A stretch of DNA of 64,000 nt from positions 496,001-560,000 of the forward strand of contig OY253672.1 of the NCBI GenBank assembly GCA_958009085.1, read 5' to 3'. A program made the position numbers and the translations under genes. This DNA is from Protoeuglena noctilucae. Its lineage: Eukaryota. Positions within the stretch are counted from its first letter, which is position 1, and every line of letters begins with the position of its first letter. Positions 1,847 through 55,248 of the stretch are shown here, in pieces. The notes below the pieces were generated by a model that ran no database searches, was not told where the DNA came from, and was given only the letters and a program-made list of their open reading frames with translations.

Positions 1847-4800
1847 ATGGGGAGCCGGAAGATCGTCACCGACGCGGCGGCAAAGCTGCTGAGGCTGCCC
1901 TCAGCGGAGCTGTTCGCCAAGGTGGGGCGGGGATTACTCTCTTGTGTTAACTAAAGTCAAGCCACTCGGCCGTGCCCGGTATCGTCGGCGTTTAGCCGAA
2001 GAGTCAACATCGCGGTGACCCGGGCACCTTGCGAGGCCGTCGGGAGCCCGATGGCCCTTGGTTGGCTCGCCGAAGGGATGTACCATTTCAAACATCAATT
2101 AAGCATGCCCGGGATGTCGCGACTGGCGATCCTTGCTGCGGAAGCGACAGGTGGCCTCGGCTCGTGCGCCGGGGTCCTTCGCGCCGCGGTGCGGCCCGCC
2201 ATCGTCGCGGCGTGGGATTTATGGGCTGCGTACTGACGCCACTTTCCGCTGCCAACGATTGCCGGGCGTCGGCGTCCTCCGCACCGTGCATCGAAGGCTG
2301 CAAAGTGCCGAGCATGCCACCGACTGCCGGGTCGCGCCGGGGGCTCCCCGGCCCGCTGCTCGCCGTATATACCTCCGATCCGTTCTTTGCTGTCTCGCTG
2401 CTGCGGCCGTCTTCCCTAACGGCCTTTCGTGGCCGAGGGTGGGCCCTTGCGTGTTCGAGCGGCCTTTGGTTCCCCGCGCTCGCGGCACCTCTTTGCGTGC
2501 CCGCGTCCCCCGCAGTATGCGTCCACGGGGGCCAAGAAAGTCATGGAAACCCGGGACCTCGCGCGCCTGTTCGCGGACTGCGGCATCGCCGTGGCCGGGG
2601 GCGACTTCGACGACGAATTTCGCCTCGCGGATTTGAAGGGCGACGGCGTGCTGACGCTGGACGAGTTCGCCGTGTACCACTACGGGGTGCTGCGGACGCA
2701 GGCCGGCCTGCTTGCGGGGCTGGAGAGCGTCTTCAAGGCATACATCGCGTTTGGCGGCAAGCCCGACCTCTTCATGGACGCGCGGGCCCTGGTGAGCTGC
2801 GAACGAGAAAAAAGAAACGCCTTTTCGCATATTTGATGCAATACCGCGATTCCTGGAGCACCGAGGGTGCTGTTTTGCATTGCGCAAAGAGCATCGACGT
2901 TGCACGTTCCTCCCCTCTCTCTCGCGTGCACCGCAGGCGCACCTGTGCAAGGACGCGAAGTTGATCGGGGACGGTCTGCGCCTGGGAGACGTGGACGTGA
3001 TCCACTCCAAGGTCAAGACCAAGGGGGAGCGCAAGGTGTCGTTTGAGCAGTTCGTCTACGCCCTGGCGCTGGTGGCAGAAGCACGGGTGAGCGGGGGGCA
3101 TGCATGCCGCATGCAGAGGTGTCTCAGCACTGGTGACCACCGCAGTCAGTCCTGCATGCGATTCTTGTTCCCCATCTCTACCACCACCCATCGTGCTCTG
3201 CCCCACTTGCAATCCGCACCATGTATATCGATATGCCACCCCACATATCGCGCTCCGCCATTCTCCCAGAGCGAGACATTAGACCAGGTGGTGGCTTCCG
3301 TGGTCAAGTCCGGTCCCCCAAAGGGCCACGGCACCACGGAGACCGACAAAGTGCGACTGCACGACGACAAGGATGCGTACACGTGGGTGTACAAGCGGGG
3401 AGGGTCGGCGAAAGTGGACGGGCCGGCATTGGTTAACGCGGGGCAGGCGTCTATCAAGGGAAGGCAGGAGGGCGATGGGAGGGGGGCGGACCGGGGTGCG
3501 CGGGCAATGGGGGCGGGGGCGGGTGGTGATGCGGGGAGGGGGCAGGGGCTGTCGCGGCAGGGGTCTTTGGCGAGGCGGGACAGCCTGACGGAGAGCACGG
3601 GTGAGGGGAAGGGTGGGATGGGATGAGATGTGACGGAGATGGGGGATGTGAGATGGAGAGGGTGACTACAGTGGTACCGTTCACGCCAAACCCAACCCTT
3701 TTACCCCCCTCCACCCCCCCCCAGGCAGCGTGGGCGAGGAGGAGGTGGCCGCGATGCTGGAGAAGGCGTCTCTGCGCCGCGTGAACGAGGCGATTTCGAC
3801 CAAAGAGGACCTTCCCTCTCAGGGGGAGATCCGCGTGGAGCTGACGCCCACGGGGGACATGGACACGGACCTGAGGAACGTGTTTGAGGTGATTGTGTGT
3901 GGGAGTAATATAGTAATAGAGTGATATGTGGAGTGATTGGGTGATGGAGTGATGCTGGGACATGGACACGGACCTGAGGAACGTGTTTGAGGTCAGATGG
4001 AGTGTGACTGGTAGAGTAATTGAGTGATTGAGTAATGGAGTAGTTGAGTGACAGGGTGATGGTGAGACATGGACACGGACCTGCGCCACAACACACTCTC
4101 CCTCCCCACCCTCACGTTAGGCCCACAACGTCCTCAACAACCCAGCATCCCTCACACCTCTTCCCCCCCCCCCACCCCACCCCAGGCCTACAACATCTTT
4201 GACGGCGGCGACCCCGACACCATGTCCGGCCGCGCCTTCGTGAAGATCTTCCGCGATCGCAACATGGTGCAGCGCAACAAGGGCATGACCACACAGTACC
4301 TGGATTTGCTGTTTGCTAAGATGAAGCCCAAGGCACAGAAGAGGATGGGGTTCAGGGACTTCAAGGCAGCTTTGGAGAAGATCGCCACGGAGCACAAGCA
4401 GGCGAGTGGAGATGGGGTGGGGATGGGTGGGTGTGTGTGAGTGAGTGGGTGTGTGTATGGGTGTGTAAACAGGTCGCCATTCGCCCACCTCATCACCCAT
4501 CTCACATCCCATCTCTCATTCACCTCCCACCCCCCCCCAGATGGGCATGGCCGAGTTCGCCCACCTCATCATCCAGGGCGGCGGCCCCACGGCCCGGGGC
4601 ACCATCCCCGACGACGTCCGGCACCACGACGAGGCCGTGTACAGCGCCATCGGGGGACGTGCGCCCTTCGAGTCCTCACAGCGACCCGAGTCCACCTATT
4701 CCGCCAACAGCGCGGTCGGGTCCGTCACGCGCGGCAACGCGGCCGCTTCCCCATCGGTGGATAACTCCAATGTAAATATGAATGCGAGCTCCCCCGATCG

Positions 4801-5774
4801 GTCGAGCGCGGTGTCGATGCGGCGGTCGGTGGGGGGTGGGGTGGCGGCGAGTGTGGATGTGGCAGAGATGGCGGTGCGGGAGGCGGTGCCGACGGAGCAG
4901 CGGCAGTGGGGGGAGGGGCCCAAGAGGCTCTACCAGCTGTTCCAGGTAAGATGGATGGGATGAGAGGGAGTGATATGGATGTGTGAGGTGTTGGATGTGA
5001 ATGGGAGTAAAAGCAAAGTGCAGGCAGGGCAGCCGTGACGGCCCCGCATCTCCCCGCCCAACATCCCCGCTTCCCTCACCACGTCCCTGCAACCCTTTCC
5101 ATAAGATCTCATCCCCAACCCCGCGATTCGAACCCCCGACCTCCCCCGCCCCTCACCCCCAGGACTACAACCTCTTCGGCGGCCGTGGCGACGCGCTGAA
5201 CATGGACGGCCGCGGCTTTGTGAAGCTGTGCAAGGAGAAGGGGCTGCTGATCAGGCCGCTGACGGTGACCGATGCCGACATGGTGTTTGCGGCCGTGCGC
5301 AAGGCGCCCAGAAAGACCATATCGTTTAATGAGTTCTGTGTGGCCATCGCCAAGCTGGTGGAGAGGTCGCAGGTGAGGGGTGGGGTGGCAGTGGGGGTGG
5401 GAGTTGGGGTGGGAGAGGGGGTGGCGGTGAGGGTGGCAGTGGGGGTGAAGGTGGGGGTGGTGATGAGGGTGGTAGTGCGCTTCCCAGCGTGTTTGCAAAC
5501 GCGCATCGCAGTGCACCACCTGTTGTACTACACCCATGCCCGCCCCTGTGCAACCACAACTGCCAAACAGTCAAATCCCTTCCATCTCTCCCCCCACCCC
5601 CAGGGCTCCCTGCCGTCGTTTGCCAAGGTGATGCTCGCGCTTGGCAAGATGGGAGGGCCCGAGTCAACGGGCACTGTGGGTGAGCCCACCAAGCTGTATG
5701 ATAACAAGGAGATGTGGACGGGGGTGGCGCTGAGGGGCGGCCCGTCGACCGTTGGTAGCGGGAATGCCTTCTGA
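1847..5774 (+). CDS. Multidomain TPPP-like protein: N-terminal EF-hand region plus three p25-alpha domains
   Basis: EF loop DLKGDGVLTLDEF; three p25-alpha units (LCKDAKLIG..DVDVIHSKVK..LHDDKDAYT; FVKIFRD..LDLLFAKMK..VRHHDE; FVKLCKEKGLL..DADMVFAAV..KLYDNKEMWTGV..GGPSTV). Exon 1 1847-1921 splices in phase to 2516; start codon less certain. Confidence 0.85.
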
Positions 5775-35664: not shown

Positions 35665-37663
35665 ATGCAATCGATCCGCGGCGCGGCCCTGGCGGGTGCG
35701 GTTGTTGGCCCTCTAACATGCGATGGAAACAGCCCTCCGATCCCGGCCTCTGCATCCCGGCGACGCTCGCGGCTCGTAACATTCGAACCTGTCCGTCCGC
35801 AGGCCGCGCTCCGTGGCGCGCACAGCCCTCGCTCCCCCGCGCGACGTCGCACCCTGCGGTGGTCGCGAGGCCGGTCCGCCGGCGCGCGCAGAACGGTTAC
35901 GGTTACGACTACGGCGGTGGCATGGACCCCGTGCGTTTGGACCCGATGGACCCGCTGCTGATCCGCATCTCCGCCGACCACAGCACGCAGGTCCCCGCCC
36001 CTCCGGGCACGCCCGCTGCTGGCCTAGGTGAGAGCCCTTCTTATTTGCAGCTGCTGACCCCCAGCTTATACCATAGCGCTTGAGTTTCTCGTATTCCTCC
36101 CACTTTTTTCCTTTGGTAGCTTCCCTTGGTTCCTCATCGTGACGAACGGTTGCAGCTACTGCCGCTCGCCCCAACACTCTATCTCTTGCCCCATCCTTAA
36201 CGACCAACCATGACCCTCCCCACCTCATCTCAGGCACAGAGCTGAGCCGCTACATGCTGATGCCCGTGGAGCAGTTCGTGCTCTTAGAGCTGCCCCTGGG
36301 CGCCTACATGGCACGCGAGGACGAGAACACGTTCCAATTAGTCATACCCACCGTCGCCTTCTTTGGTCTTGAAGTGCGGCCCGTGGTCCGGGCGCGCGTG
36401 ACCCACGTGGCCAGCCCGCGCCCCGCGGTGGTGGTGGAGGCGGTGCAGTTCGCGCTCGACGGGTCCGAGCCCATCCGCGCGATGCAGGACCTGGCGGAGG
36501 TGCGGGGGAGGACCACGCTCACCTGGGAGGAAGGTGAGGGGGAGGGGGTGGGGTTTGAGACGATGTGATGACTGGTTGAGGACAGGGACTGGACCACGCT
36601 GAGGTGGGAGGAAGGTGAGGGGGTCGTGGTGGGGCAGTATGAACAGTGGTGAGGCATAAGAGTGGCTCACCAACGATGTCCCCAACTCTGACGAATCAAA
36701 CACCCACCCTCTGCCATTGCCACAATCCAACCACCAACCCACCCTCCCTCTCTCACACCCCCTCAACCAATCGCCCCACCCCCAGGCCCCAACCCGTGCA
36801 TCAACGCCGACACGTCCATCCGCCTCTTCGGCAAGGCGCCCTTCCCCCTCTCCCTGGTCCCCAAGGACCTCATTGAGACGACGGCCAACACCATCCTGCG
36901 CACCCTGCTCGCCGCACTCACGGGGCCCTTCCTCACCAACCTCGCGGTGAGCAAGGGGCAGAGCGAGGGGCGGCGATCGTGACGCTGACGCAGTGCAACC
37001 ACCGAACTGCATTGTGTGGTGCATCGTGTCGCACGGCGCCGCTGGCTGCACTGTTATGCCTGGTAACCGCATAATTGCCCTGCCCTCTGAGCAACCCACG
37101 ACTCCATTCACCATCACCCCTGCAGCACGACGCACCTCTTACTCCCCCATCACCCAACCACCCCCTCCCCCCGCCCCCCCCCACTCCCGCAGAAGGACTA
37201 CCAGCGTTGGTCCTCGGACCCCGCCTATCGCGAGGAGCGCATGAGCATGCGGAGGGCCAGCGTGGTTGACGCCGCTTACGACAGCAACTACGCGAGTGCA
37301 AACCAGCAGGCCCAGTCGGGGGCCTATCCCGACAGCATGATCTACGATGGGCCTAGGTACGCCCCCACGGACTACGCCGCTCCTGTGGGTGGGTATTACC
37401 CGGGTGGGGTGGGGCAGCCGGACGGCTTCGCGAGGCCGGGGGGTGGGTACGGGGGGTACGGTCAGCAGAGCGGTGGGGGTGGCAGTGGGTACGGGCAGCA
37501 GGGTGGTGGTGGTGGTGGCTATGGGCAGCAGGGTGGCAGTGGTTATGGGCAGCAGGGCGGGGGTGGGTACGGGCAGCAGGGTGGTGGGGGTGGTGGGTAT
37601 GAGCCTAGGGCGTACGGTCGGCAGGAGTTTCGCATCGACGGTGCTGGGTGGGAGAGGTGGTGA
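35665..37663 (+). CDS. DUF1997-family protein with transit-peptide-like N-terminus and Gly/Tyr/Gln-rich tail
   Basis: LSRYMLMPVEQF, FQLVIPTVAFFGLEVRPVV, PFPLSLVPKDLIETTANTIL, FLTNLA|KDYQRWS; tail of GYGQQ repeats. Confidence 0.8.
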
Positions 37664-44100: not shown

Positions 44101-45264
44101 AGCGCCAGCTCGAAATCGTTCTCCGGGCGAATCAAATACTCTGTGTGCTCTCCTCCGCGCGGGAACTGCTCCTGGTCGGGCAGCTCAAATCCACGCCGGT
44201 TGCGCACCGCGTGGCCAAGCACCCTGCGCGCGATTGGAAGCGGAAACGGAATTTACTATGCGTATTTATTACATTTGTACATTTCTTTTCTCGATCACGC
44301 GCCCCGCAGCGGTGCCCGGGTAGACCAGCACCTGTCGTATTCGTCCGTGTGTTCCATGGCCAAGCGCAGGACCAGGGAGTTGCCGTGGAGAATGGTCTCT
44401 GCCGTCTTGCCATCCAGCTGCGGGCGAGAACGGAGACGCCGGCGATGCAGGGGCTCGCGCTGTGAGGGGTCGCTTGGCTGCATGGGTTGCTTTTGGCTTT
44501 GCATCTCACCTCAGACTCGCAGCTGCACACTAGCACCGGCCTCTCCCTGCCGCCAGCCGACACGGGCCTTGCATGCTCATGGATGCTGGGCACTGCAAGG
44601 GGCGGGGTCAAGGGGGGATTGGTTCCACTTGCAGGCCCCACCAGTGCAGGGGCCGGGCTCCACAGGGAAAGGTCGACTGCGAGTCTTTGGAGTTCGAGCT
44701 CTTAAAACCAAACATCGACATGCCAATTTTATCCTGAAACCGTCCTAAGAGCACAGGCGCCCGCGTCGCACCTGTGTAGACATCGCAGCGCAGGTGCCCG
44801 AGCGAACCCTGGTATTGCGAAGCCAGCTGCTGGAGCGGAGCGATGGCCTTCAGGTAAAAGAGTCGAGTGAGGAAGTGCGGGAACCTCGAGGGGGCGCACA
44901 GCTGCGGGTGGTCGGACACGGGCCGGGTTCCAAGGGAGCGCCCACACGCGCTCGCCGACATGCGGAGCCCGGAACGGGGAATTAGGGCCAACCACGCGCT
45001 GTCAAAGCAAGTGCTACTGTCACAGAAGGCAACGGTCAAGCGCTCTGCATTTAAGGAGCGCCCTGGGCGTCGCTGACCAACGAAACCCTCCGCGCAGTGC
45101 AGCGTGGCCGCGCGCGCGCCGCACACCTCGGTCCTCGCAATGTTGTTGTGCGACAGCACCGTACCAGCCTCTTCCACGGGATGCTTCAGGCGGAAGACCA
45201 CGAAATAACGCCGGCTGTCCGCTGCCGACGCGGAGAGGATAGCGACGCGGAGCGACGCGTCCAT
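38106..45264 (-). CDS. C2-domain and coiled-coil protein, CCDC33-like; last exon contains an internal TAG at 38670-38672
   Basis: C2-like segments (LLIMRVSRLP..KPTTFV, NDPIWDEVLSL, PGVHYHLKI); coiled coil TIQSQEAVIAKLEGVV and RAAALEEQMRELASRTSKEMASLR; Pro/Gln/Gly tail. Confidence 0.65.
39590..39715. repeat. Intronic ~12-nt minisatellite (CCCCCACTGCCA / CCCTCACTGCCA family)
   Basis: Degenerate tandem units; related tracts at 5373-5475, 7520-7610, 16038-16200, 17200-17325, 29414-29455, 30950-31030. Confidence 0.8.
41512..41607. repeat. AT-rich (AAT)n-like intronic tract
   Basis: Nearly pure A/T run within GC-rich DNA; similar tracts at ~6985-7030 and 40835-40890. Confidence 0.8.
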
Positions 45265-45647
45265 GGTTCACGAGAGGGCTTCGCAGGGCACCGCAATCTT
45301 CCTATGTTGTGCTAGTACCAGAGACGACCACTTGCACGGTGGGCAAAGCAGCTGATGCCACCAGCGCGAGGCGCAGCTGCTTTGTTTCAATAGTTAAGAA
45401 ACCGTGCGCGCGCCGAGGGGCCGCGCAGGGCTCTCCTCGACTTGCACAGTGACGTACACGAGGCACTAGGCAGCGTGCTCATCGCTGGGAGGCATTGGGA
45501 CCGTTCCTGCCAGTGCATCTGGCGTTCAAACGTCACTGCAACAACTCTAGGCTCCACTGCTGCTATTTGTGTCCTAATACCTACCTGCTGACTACGCTCG
45601 TCCCCTCTGCTACTCCTCTCTCTGGCTCTCCTCTCCTACGCCTGCGC

Positions 45648-48600
45648 CTAGTCGGAACGTGCTACGACGCGGAACGTGAGGCAGCGTGCGCCGACCGCCG
45701 CCGCCAGCGCCGCCGCCGCAGCGCGCTCCACGTCCGCTTTCGCATCTTCTAAAGAACCCGGCGGCAGCTCGCAGATCGCCACGCATCGCCGGTTGCCCTC
45801 CGGCCTAATGGCCACCCTCCGCCGCCCGTCCTCCGCACCCCCCAATGCATCGACGCACAGCGGGTGCCCCACCGCTAGGCGCATCGGCGAATCGGAGCCC
45901 TCGTCCGCAATCGCAGCGGCGCCGTCGGAGCACCGCACGACCACGCGCCCCGCGGTCTCCCCGAAGCAGGATACGTGTGTCCCTCCCGTCAGGTAATACC
46001 ACGTGTGCAGCGGGACCAGATACGCGTCCCACAGCACCACCAGGCCGTCCTCACTCCCCGTCGCCAGCCGCGTCCCGCAGCGGCTCACCGCGACGCTCGT
46101 GAATAGCCGCCCCCTTGCCGGGGCGTTGCGACGCTGCTTGCCCGTCCAGTCCCACACGCACACCGCCTGCCCCGTGCAAGTGACGAGGAAGCTCCCGTCT
46201 GGCGCGAAAGCGGCGCCGATCACGGGTGCCGACGCCTGGTGCGTGCGGATTTGGAAGGACTCTGATGCGTTCCACACCCGCGCGGTGCCGTCCTGGCTGC
46301 CTGCTTGCAGGGAAGGGGACGGTGGGGGTGTGTTTGCAGAAGAGGAGACGGTGGGATTAATGCATGGTCAGGTCCGATAGCGGAACACATGCAGCAAAGC
46401 AATCATGTTAAGATAGGCCATTGATGTGGCAACTGACATCCCCCATGTTCATACCCTCTGATTAACAATTTTTAGTCATACACGCCTCGCATCTCACCCG
46501 TGACCACCTGCGCCCCGTCCGATGCAAACGCCACGCACAGCACCGGTCCCGAGTGCCCCACGAGGCACGCCTTTTGCGCCCCATCAGGCACGCTCCATAG
46601 CCGCACCGTGTGGTCGTTACTACCACTAGCGAGCGTGCCGCCATCAGGCGAGAATGCAAGGGCGTTAGCAGGCAGCCAGTGCCCCTCAAGCGTAGTGAGT
46701 AACTCCCCGGTCCACGGATCCCACAGCCGCACGAGGTTGTCTTGGGAAGCCACCGCGACCACCGCACCGTCCCCACGCACCGCTGCCGTTTTCACGACCC
46801 CGAACGCGGCTGGGGAGGGATCCTTGCTTGCAGAAGGGTTGCTAGGTGCTGAGTTATTGACAGAAGGGTTGCCTGGCATGGGCTCGTCTGGCGAGGGGTC
46901 GCTTGTCAGGGACTTGTCAGCCTCAGTCCGCCTGTCCGGCAGTGGCCACACGCGCACGGTGCCGTCCAGCGACCCACTGGCGATCGACTCGCCAGAATGG
47001 CTGAACGCAAGGTGCAACGCGAGCAGCTCGTGGCCCGTGAGCGTGCACAGGTGCGCGCCGGTGGCCAGGCTGTAGACGCGAACATCGCCCGACCGGCACC
47101 CGACCGCAAAGACCTCGCAGATCGGGCTGACGGCCAACGAATAGCCCTCGTCATCGGGTACCGTTATTGTGACCCTCTCTGCCCAGCTCTGATGGTCCCA
47201 CACCCGCACCGTGCCCTCGCCGTCTGCCGCCACGACTGCCCCGTCTGCCGCCATCACCGCGCACCGCACCTCCCTCGCATGACCACCCAGCGTGGCGATC
47301 TCCGTCACCTCACCCGCTCCCATAGTGCTACCTGCAAAGCCACTCTTATCTACAGGCACGGCCCAGACACGGGCGGTGGCATCAGCGGAGGCCATGAGGA
47401 GCCGAGAGCCGTCTTTTGAGAAGGCCAGCGATCGTATCACGTCCGTGTGGCCACGAAGGTGGCAGGCCGAAGTCAGATGTGACCTCTTAGTCTGTAATTG
47501 GCTTGGCTCTGTACTAGTCCTGCCCTGCTCAGTACCACTCCTGCCCTGCTCCGCACCACTCCCACCCAGTTCTGTCTTAGCTAGCACCCCGTCCTTCCCA
47601 GCAGTCACGCGCACCACCGTCACCGTCCCGTCGGCCCACCCGCACGCAAGCGTGTTATTCTCGCTAAACGCCACGACTCGCATGCGCTCTTCCGGAGACT
47701 CCGGGTGCGCGACGGACGCTAGCATCGTCCCCGTCTCTGCATCCCACACCGCCAGGTCATAAGTGACGGTAGAGGACGCGACAAGCGACCCATCTGTTGA
47801 TACTGCCACGCACGCACCCTCGCCCGCCCACTCGGCCCGCACCTGTCCCATAGTTGCGTCTATCACGTGCACGCGCTGATCGCGCGTGCAGAAGGCGACC
47901 GTGCGGCCGTCCCCGCTCATCGCCATGCAACTGCGGGCGCGGGCGGGTGGGTGCATGCAGAGGGATGTCATCAAACATGCAGCGTGTGCGTACGCCTGCA
48001 AACCTGACCCACCCTTGCGTCAGATTATATAGTTCCAAGCAGTAGTAGAGACTCGCGTCGACCATAGTTGTGTGTAAACACCGCAGTGCATCCCCAAGTG
48101 AACTGCCACACAATCCGCTCACCCGACCGCCCCCCGCCCCCTCCGCGCCACGGCCCTGACGTCGCCCGTGTCTGCCTCCGCCACCCGCACCGACCCATCC
48201 AGGCTACTGGTCGCCAGAATGGACCCGTCAGGTGAAAATGCCAGTCCCGTGACATCGCTCGTGTGACCGGACAGCACGAGGCCCCTCGGCAGGGTCTCCA
48301 TGCCACCCCTGCACTCGACGTGAGGGCGATACCCCAGCCGTACGCACCGCGCTGCCGCGTCGCCCAGCCAGGTGCCTTTGGGTGCGAAAGCGGCCACGTC
48401 GATGGTCAGGGAAGCGTCCGCGGTCAGGCAGGCGGAGAAGGCCCTGGGGGGAGGGTATGGGAGATGGGAGATGTATTGCAGGGAGGGGTATGGTGACATG
48501 AGACATGCACTGTGGGGATAGATGGTGACATGGGGCATCGAACTCTAAGGCTGGGGTGCGTTAACTGCGGCGGCCATCTCACGTCCACCACCACCCTTCC

Positions 48601-51600
48601 CACCTAAGCCACCCGACCGTCTGCCGGACCAGACCCAACAAAAGCCCCTCGCCGCCCTCGCCCTGCAGAGCTCTCTCGGTCCTCGTAGCCCCCCGCACCA
48701 GCCGCGCCACCTCGTTGGCCTCCACGCACGCCCGCACGAACCCCAGGCTGGTGCACATGCGCCCCGCGGAAGCAAAGTCTCCCGCAGCTAGTGCGTGGCT
48801 CACAGCGTGCGCTGCTGCATACCTACCCAGTTTTGACAAACACGGTTGCTCCTGCGCGTTTACTCGCACATTAGAGGCGTTGATATCCAAGTCGATTGCC
48901 TTTTTAACCCATGTGTCCGCATGCAGCTTGTGGCCCGTTGTGACGTCCGCGTGCCAGGGACCCGCCTGGCCTTCCGTCAGCCAATCCAGCACGGACCTGC
49001 GATGACTCAAGGCAATCTTGTGTTATAACTATCAATGATGCATGCATATGGTATGGTTACAAATACACCTTCGTAACAAACTGTGGCATTCATAGCAAGC
49101 TTGCATTCCTCGCAATCGCATCCACCGCAACTGCATCCATCATCGCACCAACACTGCCAGTGACATAACATCTCGCTCACTTGTGGAAGGGCCGCACTCG
49201 GCCGTCCGACCCCACCGGGAAGAGGCTGCCCATGGCATCGAGAACGTGCTGCACAAAGGAGCCCTTCCGTGCTGCGTCGCTGCCCACGATCTCCGCCAGT
49301 CCTGACACCAGCAGCGGTTCTGCTGCCACAGCTAACGCGGGCAGCAGCCGCGACCGGACCAGGCGCAGGTTCGCCCTGCCCAGGTGCCCGAACTGCCTGG
49401 GGTTGGGGTGGGGTGGGGTGGGGTAGTGAGCGGGTGAGTGGGGTTGCGGGTGATGGTGATTGCGAGGGGGGTGGCGTTGGCGTGGGTGGCAATGGCATGG
49501 CTGGGAAGGGAAGGGCGACGGTCGAGGTTGGGCCAGCCACAAGCCATTCATAAAGATAATACAAAGAGGGATAAATAACACACCACAGCAAAACGCGCAC
49601 GTCACCCCCTCCACTCACACCCCCCACCCCCACTAACCTGTCCATGTAAGCGGCGTAGAGCGCCCTGTGTCCCTCCGGCAGCTCCTCTACCCGCATATCT
49701 CCGACCTGCGCCCCCTTGGCCTGCCCCGCCTCGCGTTGCACCATCGCCACCAACGCCCCCACATACGCAAACACCCCCGCGCTCTTGGACGCGATCGCTG
49801 ACGTCAGGTCGTGTCTGTCAGAATCGCAGAGGCCCTCGGGGCGCAGGCTACCACGCACGAAGGCCCCCACGTCAGCCTGGTTGTTGGCACCCTCGGGGTC
49901 CAAAGCACAAACGCGTGTCGTGTGATCATGGGATGATGACGATAATTGCAATGAGCGGACGATGTAGTCCTCGGGACGGGAGGTGACCAGGAGCCTGCGT
50001 GGGATGTTGAGAGCGTCGCGTCCTTAGCCGTCATGTCTGCATTGCTGCGCTGGTGTACGCTATGCAATGCGTGGCGGTCGTTGCGTGGGAAGTATGTTGA
50101 GGGAACATCTACTGGTGCAGGGGACATGGGCTTGATCCACACCACGCCACACACCGCACCACATCCACACCACGCCACCCCCCGCACCTCTCATTCACAC
50201 CCCCTGCACGCCACCCCACCCCACCCCACCCCACCACACCTGACCCAGGATGGCAGCTCGGCCAGAGGCCCCTTGACGAGGTGCAGGAGGCCATTGGACG
50301 CCGCTCCCGTCCCCGCCTCATCCAATGCATCGATCAGGATGACCATGGGTGGGCCGTCCCAAGACACGCCCGACAGAGGACCCACGATCAGGCTGGGGAG
50401 AGGAGGGGGGAGGGGAGGTGGCGGAGAGTCACTCTGTATATTGTCGGAACACATAAGATTTTGACAACTGCATAGTGCATACCAAGCAATGGTGAGACTG
50501 ATGAAGCAGCCCAATCGACTCAACAATTTGTTGGGTTTCGTCATCGCTGTCACTAATGAGGGACGCTTCTCACACCGCCATTCGAACATCACAACCCCAT
50601 ACCTTCGTTTTATATCGCTCTCGTCTTATATCGCTCTCGTCACCTTTGGCACCACTGGGCAGCGGGCGCTTGCTTGTCCAGAGCCCCCCACGCGTCCCAC
50701 ACTGCTCGGGCGACCCCAGGCACCTCATTGGCCACCTGGCAAGCCAGGGACTTGACGATTTCCACAGGATCGCTGCGCCGGGCATCCACGAATCGGCGGA
50801 AGTGCCCAGCCAGGAGTCGGCCGGTGCGGCTGAGCTCGACCGCCACGTGCGCGGCAAAGGCGGTCTTGCCCATGCCTACAAGGGGGACACGGTGGGAGGG
50901 CAGTGGTCTACTCTATGTTGCATTCTATGTCGTTGCCTGCGCGGGGGGTCTTTTCTGTGTCGCAGATGAGTGAGGTGCAATGCCATGCAGCGCAAGCATG
51001 GTATGCGGCGGTGCGGGCATGGAGCGTACAACCACACAAAGAATGTGGCAGCAGTGATGCGACTGCAAAGCACCTGGCAGTGCGAGCAGGAGCAGCACGT
51101 TCTGGCTCGCCCCCTCTCCGCCCTCCGCCCATGCCAAAACCTCTCGTAGCAACCACGCGCGTGTGCCTGCCTGCGATGGGCGACGAGGCACGCATGTTGA
51201 TGAGGTCCTATGGTTGTGGATGCGAAGCCTTTGTCCTTCATATAAACACACATTCCACGTTTTACACGTAGCACCCCCACACACTCCCAATACCACCCTC
51301 ACACCAGGTAGCTCGCCGCTTGCCGATCGGCTCGCTTACCTTCCCTCACGCGTGCAAGTCACCCCGTCCCCGGTCTCACCAGGAAGCTCGCCTCCTTGGC
51401 CACCGCCTCGTCCAGAAACTCCAACGGCTGCAGCGCCTCCCGCAGCGCAGCCATCGTCTCATCCACCCCACCCGCACCCGCCGCACCCCCGCTGCCCATA
51501 CCCACTGCTGTCCCCCCCACCCCTGCCCCAGCACTGCCCACCCCTGGCCCCATGCCACCCACCCCAAACCCCATGCCACCCACTCCCACACCCACTCCCA

Positions 51601-54100
51601 CCCCCTCTACTTCGCTGTGCACGAGGGCCACCAGGTCTTCGAATCGGATGTCCCCCCACGCCACGCCCCTCCGCCGCTCCACGCGCCTCGCCAAGGCAAA
51701 CACCTGTGCCACCTGCAGCGTCCCGGACGGCGCCAGGCGGGCCCTGAGCCCACTCTCCGCAAAGACCTCGAGTGGTGGGGACTCAATGGTCGCACGATAC
51801 CACTCCGCCGGCGACGTCAGCAGCGCCGGGCGGCACTCGACGTGGATAAGCACATCGATGAATTCGGACCATGGGTACTCCAATAGCACGTTCCCGAGCC
51901 CGTCTGCCTCGTCGGCCCACAGCCGCAGCACGGAGGGCGGCAAGCGCTGCAGTTCCCTCGGCATAGGGTCGAGCACGTGGCGCAATAACAGGTGCACGGC
52001 TTGGCCCAGGTCCTGCATCAGCGCCGCCAGCACCTGCTCCCCCGGCGCTAAGAGGCCGAAGAGCGCGTCGATGCGAGCGGGGTCAGACAACATTGCGCGT
52101 AGGTGGTGGGGCGGGACGTCCTGCAGCCGCGTCGCGCCCGCCTCGTGCGCCAGTTTCGCTGCCAGATCCGCGCTCGAGAAGAGTCCGCCGGAGTCGATGG
52201 CCGCGCGGATGTCGTCCAGGCCACGCAGCGTCTGGACCTGCAATGCAGGGTAGGGCACTTCGCACTTGATGAATGATGAATGTGTCACATGGCGTGGGTG
52301 GGTATCATGTATGCAGAGACAGCTAGCTCTGCAGGCATGCATGCGCGCGTGTGTGAAATTTCCCCATAGTGACCTCCGCCCTCGCCTGCATCGCCGTCGC
52401 CAGCGTGGACACCTGCGGCAGGGAAACGAACGACGTTCCTTAATATTTCACGATTCCATTTAATAAGCACAACTTGCATGATTATCCACCCGAATGCCTC
52501 GTCTCGCCTGCGTCTTGATCTTCTCCGCAAGCTCTTTGAGGCCGTCGACGTCCATGGACGCCTTCAAGAAGCGCCCCAGCCACGTGCGGCCCTCGACCTC
52601 GCCCACCAGCGTCGCCGCCTCCTCCAAAAGATCTGCGAGAACATATCGTGTATTGTCGGCATGGAACGAAGCTCACTGTGCACTGCAGTGCAGGTGCGAC
52701 TCGGCATGACAATCGGACGGTGCTTGTACGTCATGCAAGCATGACACAGACCAGCACTGCCACGACTCGCATCTGTCCAACATCACCCACTTGTGATCTC
52801 CAGCAGCACTTTGTTGCTCCTCCGCACGACAGCATGGGCCTCCACCACGACCTCCGCCACAGCGACCACCACGGCTCGGAAGTCCTGCAACGCCGCCTTC
52901 ACTGCCACCGCCTGCGTGCATGGCAGTGATAAGGGATGCTCTTACCCACCTCACCCATCCCCGCTCTTACCCACCTGCCCTCACCCACATCGCCCATCCC
53001 TGCCCTCACCTCAGCAATGCCTTGCACCCACCTACCAGCTGCCCTCACCTCGGCCACTCCCGCCCTCACCCACCTCCCTCACCCCATCCCTCACCTCGGC
53101 AATGCCCTGCACCCACCAGCTGCCCTCACCTCGGCCACTCCTGCCCTCACACGCTGCCCTCACCTCAGCAATGCCTTGCACGACCCGGGACGCCACCTCC
53201 GCGAGAGGCCCCACCAACGGCGCCGACGCGAGCACCTCGAGTGCCTGCATGCCACCCCGGCTCAGGATGCGCAAGATGTCGCCTGTCACCCTGTTCTCCT
53301 GCAGGCGCAGACGAGCAATGCGGTGTGACGGCTCCCGTGAAAGCTGGTGAGGTCATTATGAGGCGTGGAGGAGATGCCGGGCGTCAGACACTCAGGACAT
53401 GTCGCATATAGACAGGGTGGATGAGCTCACGCATGTTAACGCTGTTGCAAGTCACACCTGAAGGAAGGTCAGCACCGGTCCGGCCAGCGGTTCCACGACA
53501 CCCAAGAGCTTCTGCGCCTCCGCCACGCGCTCCTGAGCCGCGGAGGACAGCTCCGACACCGCATCGAGCGCTTTATCGGTGGCATTGGCTGGCGGTGGGT
53601 CCGAAATCGCCGTGACTGGGTCGGGAGCGGGGGCGACCTTGCTGCGGGCGTGTCGATAGCGCTTGGATTCCGCAGGGTCTCCGTTCGCAACCGCCGGGTC
53701 TCTTGGAACTACTGCGACGTCATCACGGGACGCGTGGGCGGGAGGGACCGTGGATAGCGCAGATTTCCCCTCGCTGGCCATGGCCATGCACAGAGCGTCC
53801 ACAGCGCAGGCGTCGCGGAGCCCGGAATCCCGCAATCGCTGTCGGAGAACTCCCGAAGCGTGATACTCTCGCAACAGACCGATGGTGAGGCCACCCGTCG
53901 CGAGAGCGCGGAGCACGCGGGCGTCATGTGCAAGGCGCTGGTTCTGCGCACAGAGGCGGAAGCGAACCGTATTTGCAACTTGAGGAGAGAGAGGACAAAC
54001 GCGCGAAGCTCTCCGAGCTCTGTAAACTCTGTATCCTATGTCTTACCCAGAGAATGCAATATATCTCGGGGTCCACGGGAGTGCTCGCGCCACACCCCAT
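45648..54100 (-). CDS. NLR-like STAND protein: MGCGAS acylation motif, MLKL-NTD-like helical bundle, NACHT NTPase, WD40 repeats
   Basis: GTRAWLL pre-motif, Walker A ALP|GMGKT, GHF, IVKSLACQV, Walker B MVILIDALDE, LLVTSRPE, SAGVFAYV, PFHKSVLDWL; multiple GH..WD-type repeats at 45700-48290. Confidence 0.9.
52975..53181. repeat. Tandem array of degenerate copies of an exon-end/donor unit (GCCCTCACCTC[AG]GC..) in an intron of the NLR-like gene
   Basis: gccctcacctcagcaatgcc and gccctcacctcggccactcc units recur at ~53002, 53041, 53088, 53122, 53156. Confidence 0.85.
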
Positions 54101-54354
54101 TCGAAAGCCCAGCGGGGAAGGCAGCGCCGGGGCACGGCACAGACCACCCACTGGCAGTATGCACGCGCAGTCTCGGGCACAGATGCGTGGTCCCGCGTCG
54201 TGCAGCACAGGTCCGCATGCCAGTCGAGGACTGCAGTCGCAAGGGCGCTCGTGCGAGGGTGCAGAGGCAATTTTCGCATCCTTAAGTATCATTTTCTCCC
54301 GATTGGCAAGCACTCGGAGGTTTTTGTGCTTCGGTCGCGTTGAAACCCGTCGCG

Positions 54355-55248
54355 ATGAAGCGCTTCATGAGCGCGGCGGCAGGGGCGCGGGTGGACACGG
54401 CCGCTAACCTGGTGGAGATGAGGGAGATACTCTTCAAGCCGGCGCGATTGCGAGAGTACCTGCAAACCCAATCATCGGGCCAGCATCTGGCTCGTAACCA
54501 GGAGCCGGGTCTTCTCGGTCACTTCGTGAGCGTGTTGGGCGGTTCTACTTCCAAGGTCGTCACGATACACGCTTCGGACGACCTGGAGGCCAGGTGCGGA
54601 CATTCAGGTTGGCGCAAATCGAAGTGCCGAGCAAGCCAGCCTCTCTATCGAGACACCCACCACCCACTCGGCCGCAGGGTGGCGAGCCCAGCCGACGCCC
54701 CCGCCCTCGCGCGCGACCAGACTTCGGCCATCCTGCTGGAGGCGCTGGACTGCCACGAGGCCGGCGGGGCGTGCCGCGTCCGCGACTTCCAGACACCTCC
54801 CGACGGCGAGTGCCGTACCTCCCCTGCGCCCGCGCTCTGTCTTATACAAATGCCATATCGCGCAACGACGCCGCTCCATCGTCGCATAGTACCCGACCTC
54901 ACTCTCACAGCAGGTGCGGCTCGGCCGGTCTATGAGATGCGACAATATCAGCTGCACCCGGGTTACGGCAGCGTGCCCAAGCTGCGGGAGATTTTCCTAG
55001 AGGGCCTGCCTCACAAGGTCGCCGCGGACCCCACGGGGCGTCTCGTGGGGTTCCTTTACACGGACTTCGGGACGCTGAACCGCGTGGTGGAGCTGTGGCG
55101 GTACCCATCCGCCCAGGCGTGCATTGATGCGCGCCAGGCGGCTCGCAGGGTGCAGCCCTGGCGCGAGTGCATCGGCAAGGTGACGCCGGGAGTGCAGCAC
55201 TTCACCACAGAGCTGCTGGCGCCCACCCCCCTGTCGCGGTGGAAGTGA
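54355..55248 (+). CDS. NIPSNAP-family protein
   Basis: VYEMRQYQLHPG, GFLYTDFGTLNRVVELWRYPS, LLAPTPLSRWK; two stop-free introns (54594-54677 and from 54806). Confidence 0.88.
   Translation: MKRFMSAAAGARVDTAANLVEMREILFKPARLREYLQTQSSGQHLARNQEPGLLGHFVSVLGGSTSKVVTIHASDDLEARCGHSGWRKSKCRASQPLYRDTHHPLGRRVASPADAPALARDQTSAILLEALDCHEAGGACRVRDFQTPPDGECRTSPAPALCLIQMPYRATTPLHRRIVPDLTLTAGAARPVYEMRQYQLHPGYGSVPKLREIFLEGLPHKVAADPTGRLVGFLYTDFGTLNRVVELWRYPSAQACIDARQAARRVQPWRECIGKVTPGVQHFTTELLAPTPLSRWK

Follow-up and report, generated by a model that had tools for sequence, protein, structure and literature searches.

Can a single protein of a marine, probably photosynthetic eukaryote unite a membrane-acting helical executor, a nucleotide-driven switch and a repeat-built sensor? 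The question is raised by a minus-strand locus at positions 54100-45648 of the 64-kb stretch of contig OY253672.1 analysed here (the window, in what follows), which a preliminary description had read by eye as a gene for an N-acylated protein of MLKL-like, NACHT and WD40 parts. On balance, and with restraint, we favour an affirmative answer. One gene would encode an all-in-one protein resembling the NOD-like receptors (NLRs), of the class of signal transduction ATPases with numerous domains (STAND), in which an N-terminal extension, an MLKL_N/HeLo-like domain, a linker, a NACHT and WD40 repeats are combined with a membrane-acting mechanism. Its parts would succeed one another as an extension of about 200 residues, a helical domain at residues ~200-330, a linker of about 190 residues, a NACHT-type NTPase and some 14 WD40 blades.

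The gene was modelled by joining exons along the minus strand via consensus splice sites. The translated model consists of 16 exons (54100-54047, 53943-53458, 53298-53164, 52911-52791, 52632-52508, 52412-52386, 52237-51380, 51170-51074, 50875-50644, 50392-50240, 49994-49638, 49396-49181, 48996-48604, 48443-48123, 47930-46498 and 46300-45648) that form one open frame of 5661 bases, or 1886 codons, in which the sole stop is the terminal one. The GC content of the region is 0.62-0.64 in 2-kb windows and its minus strand holds many short open stretches; a stop-free frame of 1886 codons lies far beyond chance expectation. Every exon of at least 97 bases has a coding-like distribution of GC over codon positions, high at the first and third and low at the second. 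A tblastn search of the window with the model found no second copy of the gene within the 64 kb.

Expression of the locus could be followed in four marine metatranscriptome runs from one study (X1-X4, with word shares with the window of 0.34, 0.21, 0.17 and 0.10). Over positions 45000-55000, contigs at least 99% alike to the window make up 15 of 19 in X1, 8 of 9 in X2 and all five in X4. Six of the 15 introns are confirmed to the base, at the joints of exons 3/4, 4/5, 8/9, 12/13, 13/14 and 15/16, all with CT..AC ends, that is, GT..AG on the minus strand. In contigs of X1, 53164 is spliced directly to 52911 and 52791 to 52632, so that both introns between the helical exons placed by the preliminary description at about 53299-53164, 52912-52790 and 52631-52508 are seen in RNA; the modelled edges lie within one base of those positions and the peptide is the same. 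No RNA joint within the gene contradicts the model in any of the four runs, and contigs extend 80-130 bases beyond the stop. RNA cover in these thin and patchy data is lacking over the remaining nine introns and over 53698-54100, which takes in exon 1 and the leading 246 bases of exon 2; this decides neither way. The locus is thus a real, expressed, well-formed and intron-rich nuclear gene, and the near-identical spliced transcripts in marine metatranscriptomes place it in a marine eukaryote. X3 was not used as support, being made up mostly of low-complexity repeats and unspliced or DNA-like pieces. Its depth reaches 330-370 at 50010-50343 and 51346-51679, on CACCC-type and similar simple repeats, a pile-up that almost certainly stems from unrelated low-complexity RNA of other organisms and not from expression of this gene.

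The NACHT and WD40 parts of the model can be identified from its own sequence. A NACHT is defined by a Walker A of the form GxxxxGK[ST], a Walker B of the form hhhhD[GAS]hDE and a TSRP-type motif. All three are intact in the translated exons 8-12 (49181-51170, minus strand): LPGMGKT, split by intron 8 between exons 8 and 9, VILIDALDE in exon 10 and LLVTSRPE in exon 11. By these definitions we take them to be of the NACHT rather than the NB-ARC kind. Pfam was run on in-frame exon pieces, and the domain was scanned piecemeal since introns divide it; exon 9 alone matches NPHP3_N, a family of the NACHT clan, at 2.9e-6 and 28.0 bits (cut-off 24.8), and exon 10 gives a faint trace of the same match. 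Neither NB-ARC nor leucine-rich repeat (LRR) families match any exon piece at E-values up to 1, and phmmer against the PDB returned one irrelevant match for exon 9 (E 0.64) and none for exon 11. A helical region without a Pfam family, exon 13 (48604-48996, minus strand; RNA joints on both sides), separates the NTPase from the WD40 array of exons 14-16 (45648-48443, minus strand), which ends with a TAG stop at 45650-45648. Here Pfam WD40 (PF00400) matches exon 14 at 1.3e-11, exon 15 at 1.4e-46 and exon 16 at 1.7e-13, in one, six and two stretches respectively, and in the PDB exon 15 is matched best by 2ymu, a WD40 protein (6.1e-136). A repeat profile built from the protein itself recognises 13 strong units (residues 1149-1762) and two weak ones, spanning residues 1099 to 1802 overall. 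The roughly 14 blades probably make two propellers, most simply of seven blades each.

The preliminary description was thus right to see an intact NACHT followed by a WD40 array. It had further compared these with the fungal HET-E/NWD type, and the comparison fails on one trait, the near-identical tandem copies of the WD40 repeat: Tandem Repeats Finder detects no array of WD40-sized period in 45600-48443, and the sole internal self-match of the protein is 27% identical. The repeats here are therefore unlike those of HET-E/NWD proteins, which are near-identical tandem units that shuffle fast.

What precedes the NACHT was examined through database relatives that hold the region in one piece, not by database searches with the spliced protein. 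Among 1.84 billion representatives, an exhaustive phmmer search that took residues 1-196 of exon 7 as query returned eight proteins, one of them this open reading frame (ORF), and a profile search added a ninth member of the family, P0009. The most informative relatives are P0007 (359 residues), which spans the whole helical region and the linker and to which residues 200-503 of the spliced protein align at 7e-34, and P0006 (449 residues), which aligns to residues 233-643 of the model at 7e-44. Where P0002 and P0003 overlap the model, identity is 42-45%; both are apparently uninterrupted genomic ORFs, because their reading continues beyond the point that corresponds to the exon 7 donor.

In these relatives the helical segment resembles the N-terminal domain of MLKL. 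Five relatives cover the segment, and in four of them the Pfam family MLKL_N (PF22215) is the top match when E-values up to 10 are allowed: P0006 (3.8e-6, 26.9 bits, profile positions 56-128 of 142), P0007 (1.6e-3, 18.4 bits, profile positions 29-120 on residues 85-178), P0002 (0.026, 14.5 bits) and P0009 (0.12, 12.4 bits). P0006 also bears PF22215 as its precomputed database label. P0004, P0005 and P0008, which do not contain the segment, have no MLKL_N match at the same threshold, and models of HeLo, RPW8 and Goodbye are absent from the Pfam matches of the relatives. A second line of evidence comes from a profile built on an alignment (A4) of four relatives and exon 5 of the window, from which the exon 3 and exon 4 pieces were left out, having been misplaced by MAFFT in two other alignments (A1 and A3). 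Searched against 177,635 PDB sequences, it gave ten matches at E-values up to 10, the top seven of which are all MLKL N-domains or full MLKL (2msv, 6zvo and 4btf among them). These matches are marginal, with E-values from 0.0069 to 0.67, and align to human MLKL residues ~60-125, which we take to be helices 3 and 4 with the short helix that connects them. This aligned region takes in the conserved R-T-W-L-G-R-F-L-K-A of exon 5. Thirdly, a search of language-model features in the Atlas with P0007 residues 40-200 gave top rows of 0.94, with 194-202 of 256 features shared; these are two fungal clusters without a common Pfam family, followed by a third cluster, 36% of whose members have MLKL_N. A plant MLKL cluster scores 0.84. 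Taken together, these similarities suggest that the segment is probably homologous to the MLKL_N/HeLo-like superfamily.

On the model, the MLKL-like match occupies residues ~230-327, that is, exons 4, 5 and 6 and the opening codons of exon 7; exon 3 stands in the place of helix 1. Exon 3 (53164-53298, minus strand; residues 181-225) supplies helices aligned with P0007 residues ~55-84 and its joint to exon 4 is seen in RNA. Exon 4 (52791-52911, minus strand; residues 226-265), with RNA joints on both sides, carries the MLKL_N-like core, corresponding to profile positions ~29-60 as mapped via P0007. Exon 5 (52508-52632, minus strand; residues 266-307) contains the conserved ...GRTWLGRFLKAS.D.DGLKELAEKI..., is 49% identical to P0007 and ends at a GC donor, GCGAGA. 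Exon 6 (52386-52412, minus strand) adds nine codons, VSTLATAMQ, before a second GC donor, GCGAGG, with the same spacing as in the uninterrupted ORFs P0002, P0003 and P0009. Exon 7 (51380-52237, minus strand; residues 317-602) holds the end of the MLKL-like match, the helical linker of about 190 residues, then a low-complexity stretch rich in Gly, Val and Ala, and last the lead-in to the NACHT. Intron 3 and the end of exon 3 contain overlapping tandem arrays, one with an 81-base unit at 52977-53169 (2.3 copies) and one with a 34-base unit at 53088-53181. Since the repeated units include the exon 3 end and its GTGAGG donor, intron 3 holds spare look-alike donors; RNA is spliced at the first, 53164.

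The two GC donors deserve comment. The donors after exons 5 and 6 both read CAG/GCGAG, with predicted GC-AG introns at 52507-52413 and 52385-52238. A GT donor 18 bases past exon 5 would keep the frame and add ARRGIR, and one 12 bases past exon 6 would likewise keep the frame and add ARAE, but neither insertion is present in P0002, P0003, P0006, P0007 or P0009; for exon 5 the GC donor was preferred because the relatives have no insertion there. That the organism does use GC donors follows from RNA of the neighbouring NIPSNAP gene, in which a GC-AG intron at 54806-54913 (plus strand; donor GCGAGT) is confirmed in three runs, its position being offset one base to the right from the reported junction, within tolerance. 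GC donors usually amount to about 1% in eukaryotes. The one confirmed and two predicted introns suggest that this organism uses them far more often than that.

Do the helical segment and the NACHT belong to the same gene, as the preliminary description supposed? The relatives support this, although a transcript of the locus itself does not enter into the argument. P0006 contains the MLKL-like segment, the linker and a GMGKT P-loop in that order, which favours a single gene over the separate genes that the preliminary description had named as refuting its reading; P0004 joins the linker to the NACHT lead-in, and the exon 7/8 junction is matched by both. The order of helical segment, linker and NACHT is, as judged from these sequences, a conserved trait of a small family.

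The linker is specific to this family. At 51650-52237 (minus strand) and in P0002-P0009, the aligned sequences (alignment A5) share invariant P, L-P, W, W, F, W and F columns, and the linker precedes the NACHT lead-in wherever the sequence continues. In the AlphaFold model of P0007 the equivalent part is predicted at a predicted local distance difference test score (pLDDT) of ~70-83. Exon 7 and the linker match no Pfam or NCBIfam family, and the best score of an Atlas search, 0.76, is uninformative. A word-indexed homologue search with exon 7 found nothing, probably through crowding out by its low-complexity stretch, and one with P0007 residues 1-200 found P0007 alone; a metagenome contig scan with alignment A6 gave 594 pattern matches, none of them confirmed. 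The low-complexity insert lies in frame at 51440-51610 (GVGVGVGVGGMGFGVGG...), between the linker domain and the NACHT, and is made of 12-22-base tandem repeats. Loose ends of RNA contigs from X1 and X3 occur in the linker exon at 52012-52048, a hint of related transcripts, that is paralogues, in the same samples.

How such a protein would work can be proposed from systems of the same layout in fungi, plants and animals. The WD40 propellers would keep it off until a ligand is bound, upon which the NACHT would exchange nucleotide and oligomerise. Oligomerisation would cluster the N-terminal helical bundles, which would then engage and disturb the membrane, leading to cell death or to a membrane-based alarm. 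If the modelled start is right, a myristoyl and palmitoyl anchor at MGC...S would retain the protein at a membrane. The data described above show how the gene is built and that it is expressed, and they identify the NACHT and WD40 parts and, at sequence level, the kinship of the helical segment's family to MLKL_N, whereas the four-helix-bundle fold, oligomerisation, membrane action and an immune role we infer by analogy.

The lipid anchor is the weakest part of this explanation. Dual acylation calls for a Met-Gly start with Cys as the third residue and either Ser/Thr or a small residue as the sixth. The sequence announced by the preliminary description is there: ATGGGGTGTGGCGCGAGC (MGCGAS) at 54100-54083 on the minus strand opens exon 1 (54047-54100), a model-only exon whose ATG at 54100 begins an open stretch of 18 codons ending at a GTAAGA donor. 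M-G-C-G-A-S fits the myristoylation pattern, with Cys3 as a candidate palmitoylation site. Exon 2 (53458-53943, minus strand; residues 19-180) provides the rest of the N-terminal extension, helical-looking and then Pro/Ala-rich, with the first helices that precede the MLKL-like core; it has GC values of 0.76/0.53/0.71 by codon position, an RNA contig at 53462-53697 and no Pfam family. That MGCGAS is the true, acylated N-terminus is a feature of the model to which we would give roughly even odds.

Almost as probable is that the 5' end is mis-modelled, MGCGAS not being N-terminal and no lipid anchor existing, with translation starting at an in-frame Met of exon 2 (..CMAMASEG..) or further upstream. 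RNA leaves 53698-54100 uncovered, the depth in these bins being that of the neighbouring gene's contigs and of the one contig at 53462-53697, and the 54 bases of exon 1 are too few for composition to be informative. Should transcription begin further up, MGCGAS would be preceded by two out-of-frame ATGs (54279 and 54218) and one in-frame ATG (54292). P0007, the sole relative with a complete N-terminus, starts right before the helical domain and without an MG start. Against these points stand the good splice sites of exons 1 and 2, in phase 0 (donor TGG/GTAAGA, acceptor ..tgcgcag/AAC), and the good context of the ATG (A at -3, G at +4). Exon 2, moreover, opens with 52 codons that are coding-like (0.79/0.52/0.69) yet free of Met, so that their translation needs an upstream start, and values of 0.67/0.60/0.58 mark the sequence ahead of the ATG as non-coding-like. 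Finally, the divergent NIPSNAP transcripts start at 54288-54331, leaving fewer than 200 bases for promoter and 5' untranslated region and little room for a further exon.

Rather unlikely, in our judgement, is a pure scaffold role, in which the helical N-region of this NACHT-WD40 STAND protein would serve only as an adaptor or oligomerisation module without damaging membranes, the likeness to MLKL_N reflecting shared ancestry without shared function or a sub-threshold look-alike. Several observations count in its favour, weigh against the all-in-one NLR-like explanation, or do both. The MLKL_N scores of all relatives lie below the curated cut-off (the best being 26.9 against 27), P0003, which starts inside the segment, has no MLKL_N match at E-values up to 10, and the window's own N-terminal exon pieces match neither MLKL_N nor any other Pfam or NCBIfam family. 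Searches of the PDB with phmmer did not retrieve MLKL, exon 5 giving zero matches at E-values up to 10 and P0007 one irrelevant match (E 3.8). Structure predictions do not show a four-helix fold: AlphaFold models of P0007 (nine alignment rows) and of its first 200 residues (five rows) are all-helical and of low confidence, with pLDDT of 60.6 and 45.3, and over the helical domain the values of ~45-66 make them too poor to judge a four-helix bundle. Foldseek searches of the PDB with these low-confidence models gave F-BAR domains as best matches (E 0.28), and VIA-align likewise yielded only generic long-helix matches. Whichever start is right, the bundle region is not at the outermost N-terminus; about 200 residues precede it, unlike in MLKL and RPW8, where helix 1 lies at the very N-terminus, and the family is tiny. 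RNA contigs linking the helical exons to the NACHT exons are absent, introns 5, 6 and 7 being unseen under the thin, patchy cover. The scaffold explanation can further point to NPHP3_N as the only Pfam match of the NTPase, a model named after an animal protein that is not known to act in cell death, to neighbours that are housekeeping genes without an immune cluster and to the absence of any sign of rapid shuffling of the WD40 repeats. It has greater difficulty with the agreement of a Pfam hidden Markov model, the family profile against the PDB and the language-model features, which all point to MLKL_N and to no comparable other family, and with the reported link between the same architecture in fungi and regulated cell death (PMC9815663; PMC12881547). 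The claim of an MLKL_NTD-like segment, as first put forward, accordingly stands in so far as four of five relatives, the PDB profile and the language-model features bear it out, and falls short in that no Pfam score reaches the cut-off.

That the locus is a decaying or non-functional copy, as the long Gly/Val/Ala low-complexity insert of exon 7 and the tandem repeats in the introns might suggest, is very improbable given 1886 codons without a stop across 16 exons, spliced transcripts in environmental RNA and NTPase motifs that are all intact.

The RNA data show one further peculiarity in WD40 exons 15-16. In X1 and X2, the agreement of some contigs with the gene breaks off at 46050 or begins only at 47195, and these contigs continue with up to 255 letters unlike the window; the region between 46050 and 47195 is matched by other contigs of the same runs. 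These loose ends could reflect a paralogue, a divergent WD40 allele or chimeric assembly. A more ambitious extension of the all-in-one NLR-like explanation, which we regard as improbable, is that the protein belongs to a small lineage-restricted family of myristoyl- and palmitoyl-anchored MLKL-like NLRs of marine phytoplankton, whose WD40 propellers would detect infection, for instance a viral one, and which would lyse the cell, with divergent WD40 versions in natural populations. Such versions are hinted at by the X1 and X2 contigs that diverge between 46050 and 47195.

The surroundings of the gene are ordinary. Its divergent neighbour is the NIPSNAP-domain gene on the plus strand, starting at ~54355, and the window also contains genes for an AMP-binding enzyme, two p25-alpha proteins, VPS11, a RING finger protein, a Y-family polymerase, ubiquitin-L40e, CPDase, a DUF1997 protein, an ammonium transporter and nicastrin. 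With these ordinary eukaryotic genes as neighbours, there is no NLR cluster in the window. The two p25-alpha (TPPP) ORFs, at 2796-3623 and 5001-5771 (plus strand), are adjacent and look like a tandem pair. The DUF1997 ORF at 36143-36565 (plus strand) is the window's only hint of a photosynthetic host. DUF1997 is typical of cyanobacteria and plastid-bearing eukaryotes and fits an alga; the host is a marine, probably photosynthetic eukaryote.

Executors of regulated cell death in marine phytoplankton, for instance in viral infection, are poorly known, and a transcribed gene in which a probable MLKL/HeLo-type domain is coupled to a NACHT-WD40 switch offers a concrete, testable candidate. If the all-in-one NLR-like explanation is true, the placing of sensor and executor in one protein extends beyond fungi and the plant RPW8 type to another eukaryotic lineage, which bears on the age of the link between STAND switches and MLKL-like bundles.

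How, then, does the predicted protein compare with known systems? The MLKL of animals and plants, built of a four-helix bundle, a brace and a pseudokinase, is like it in that the family of exons 4-6 aligns to human MLKL ~60-125 and to MLKL_N positions 29-128. It differs in that there is no pseudokinase here, so that a NACHT switch would activate the protein instead of phosphorylation, and in that the similarity is sub-threshold and the fold predicted at low confidence only. The RPW8-type helper NLRs of plants, such as ADR1 and NRG1, consist of an RPW8/HeLo-like domain, an NB-ARC and LRRs. As in our prediction, their STAND switch carries an MLKL/HeLo-superfamily bundle on its N-terminal side; unlike them, the present protein has a NACHT-type NTPase (Walker B D-A-L-D-E, NPHP3_N) rather than NB-ARC and WD40 repeats rather than LRRs, and its relatives have no RPW8 match in Pfam at E-values up to 10.

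Among algae, NACHT-WD40 proteins of the green alga Chlamydomonas reinhardtii are mentioned in passages of PMC4773052. By that description alone they are alike in joining a NACHT NTPase to C-terminal WD40 repeats in an alga, and unlike in that the same passages describe no N-terminal effector domain for them. For an MLKL-like NACHT-WD40 protein in an alga, no description was found in open-access papers and preprints.

The closest parallels are fungal. According to passages of PMC9815663, MLKL_NTD/HeLo-like N-termini are abundant in fungi on NACHT or NB-ARC proteins with WD40, ANK or TPR repeats, and all-in-one NLRs with HeLo, HeLo-like and basidiomycete MLKL_NTD-like N-termini are treated there (see also PMC4986451). 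The order seen here, with a probable MLKL/HeLo-superfamily helical domain, a NACHT-clan NTPase and WD40 repeats, agrees with theirs, and even the helices ahead of the predicted bundle have a counterpart in the basidiomycete MLKL-like and Goodbye-like NLR domains, for which the same passages of PMC9815663 give extra N-terminal helices before the bundle. Unlike the fungal proteins, the one described here comes from a marine, probably photosynthetic eukaryote, carries a conserved linker of about 190 residues without a Pfam family between the predicted bundle and the NACHT, and begins with an extension of about 200 residues with a possible acylation motif. What emerges is a known executor-switch-sensor kind in a new lineage, with a linker domain and an N-terminal extension of its own.

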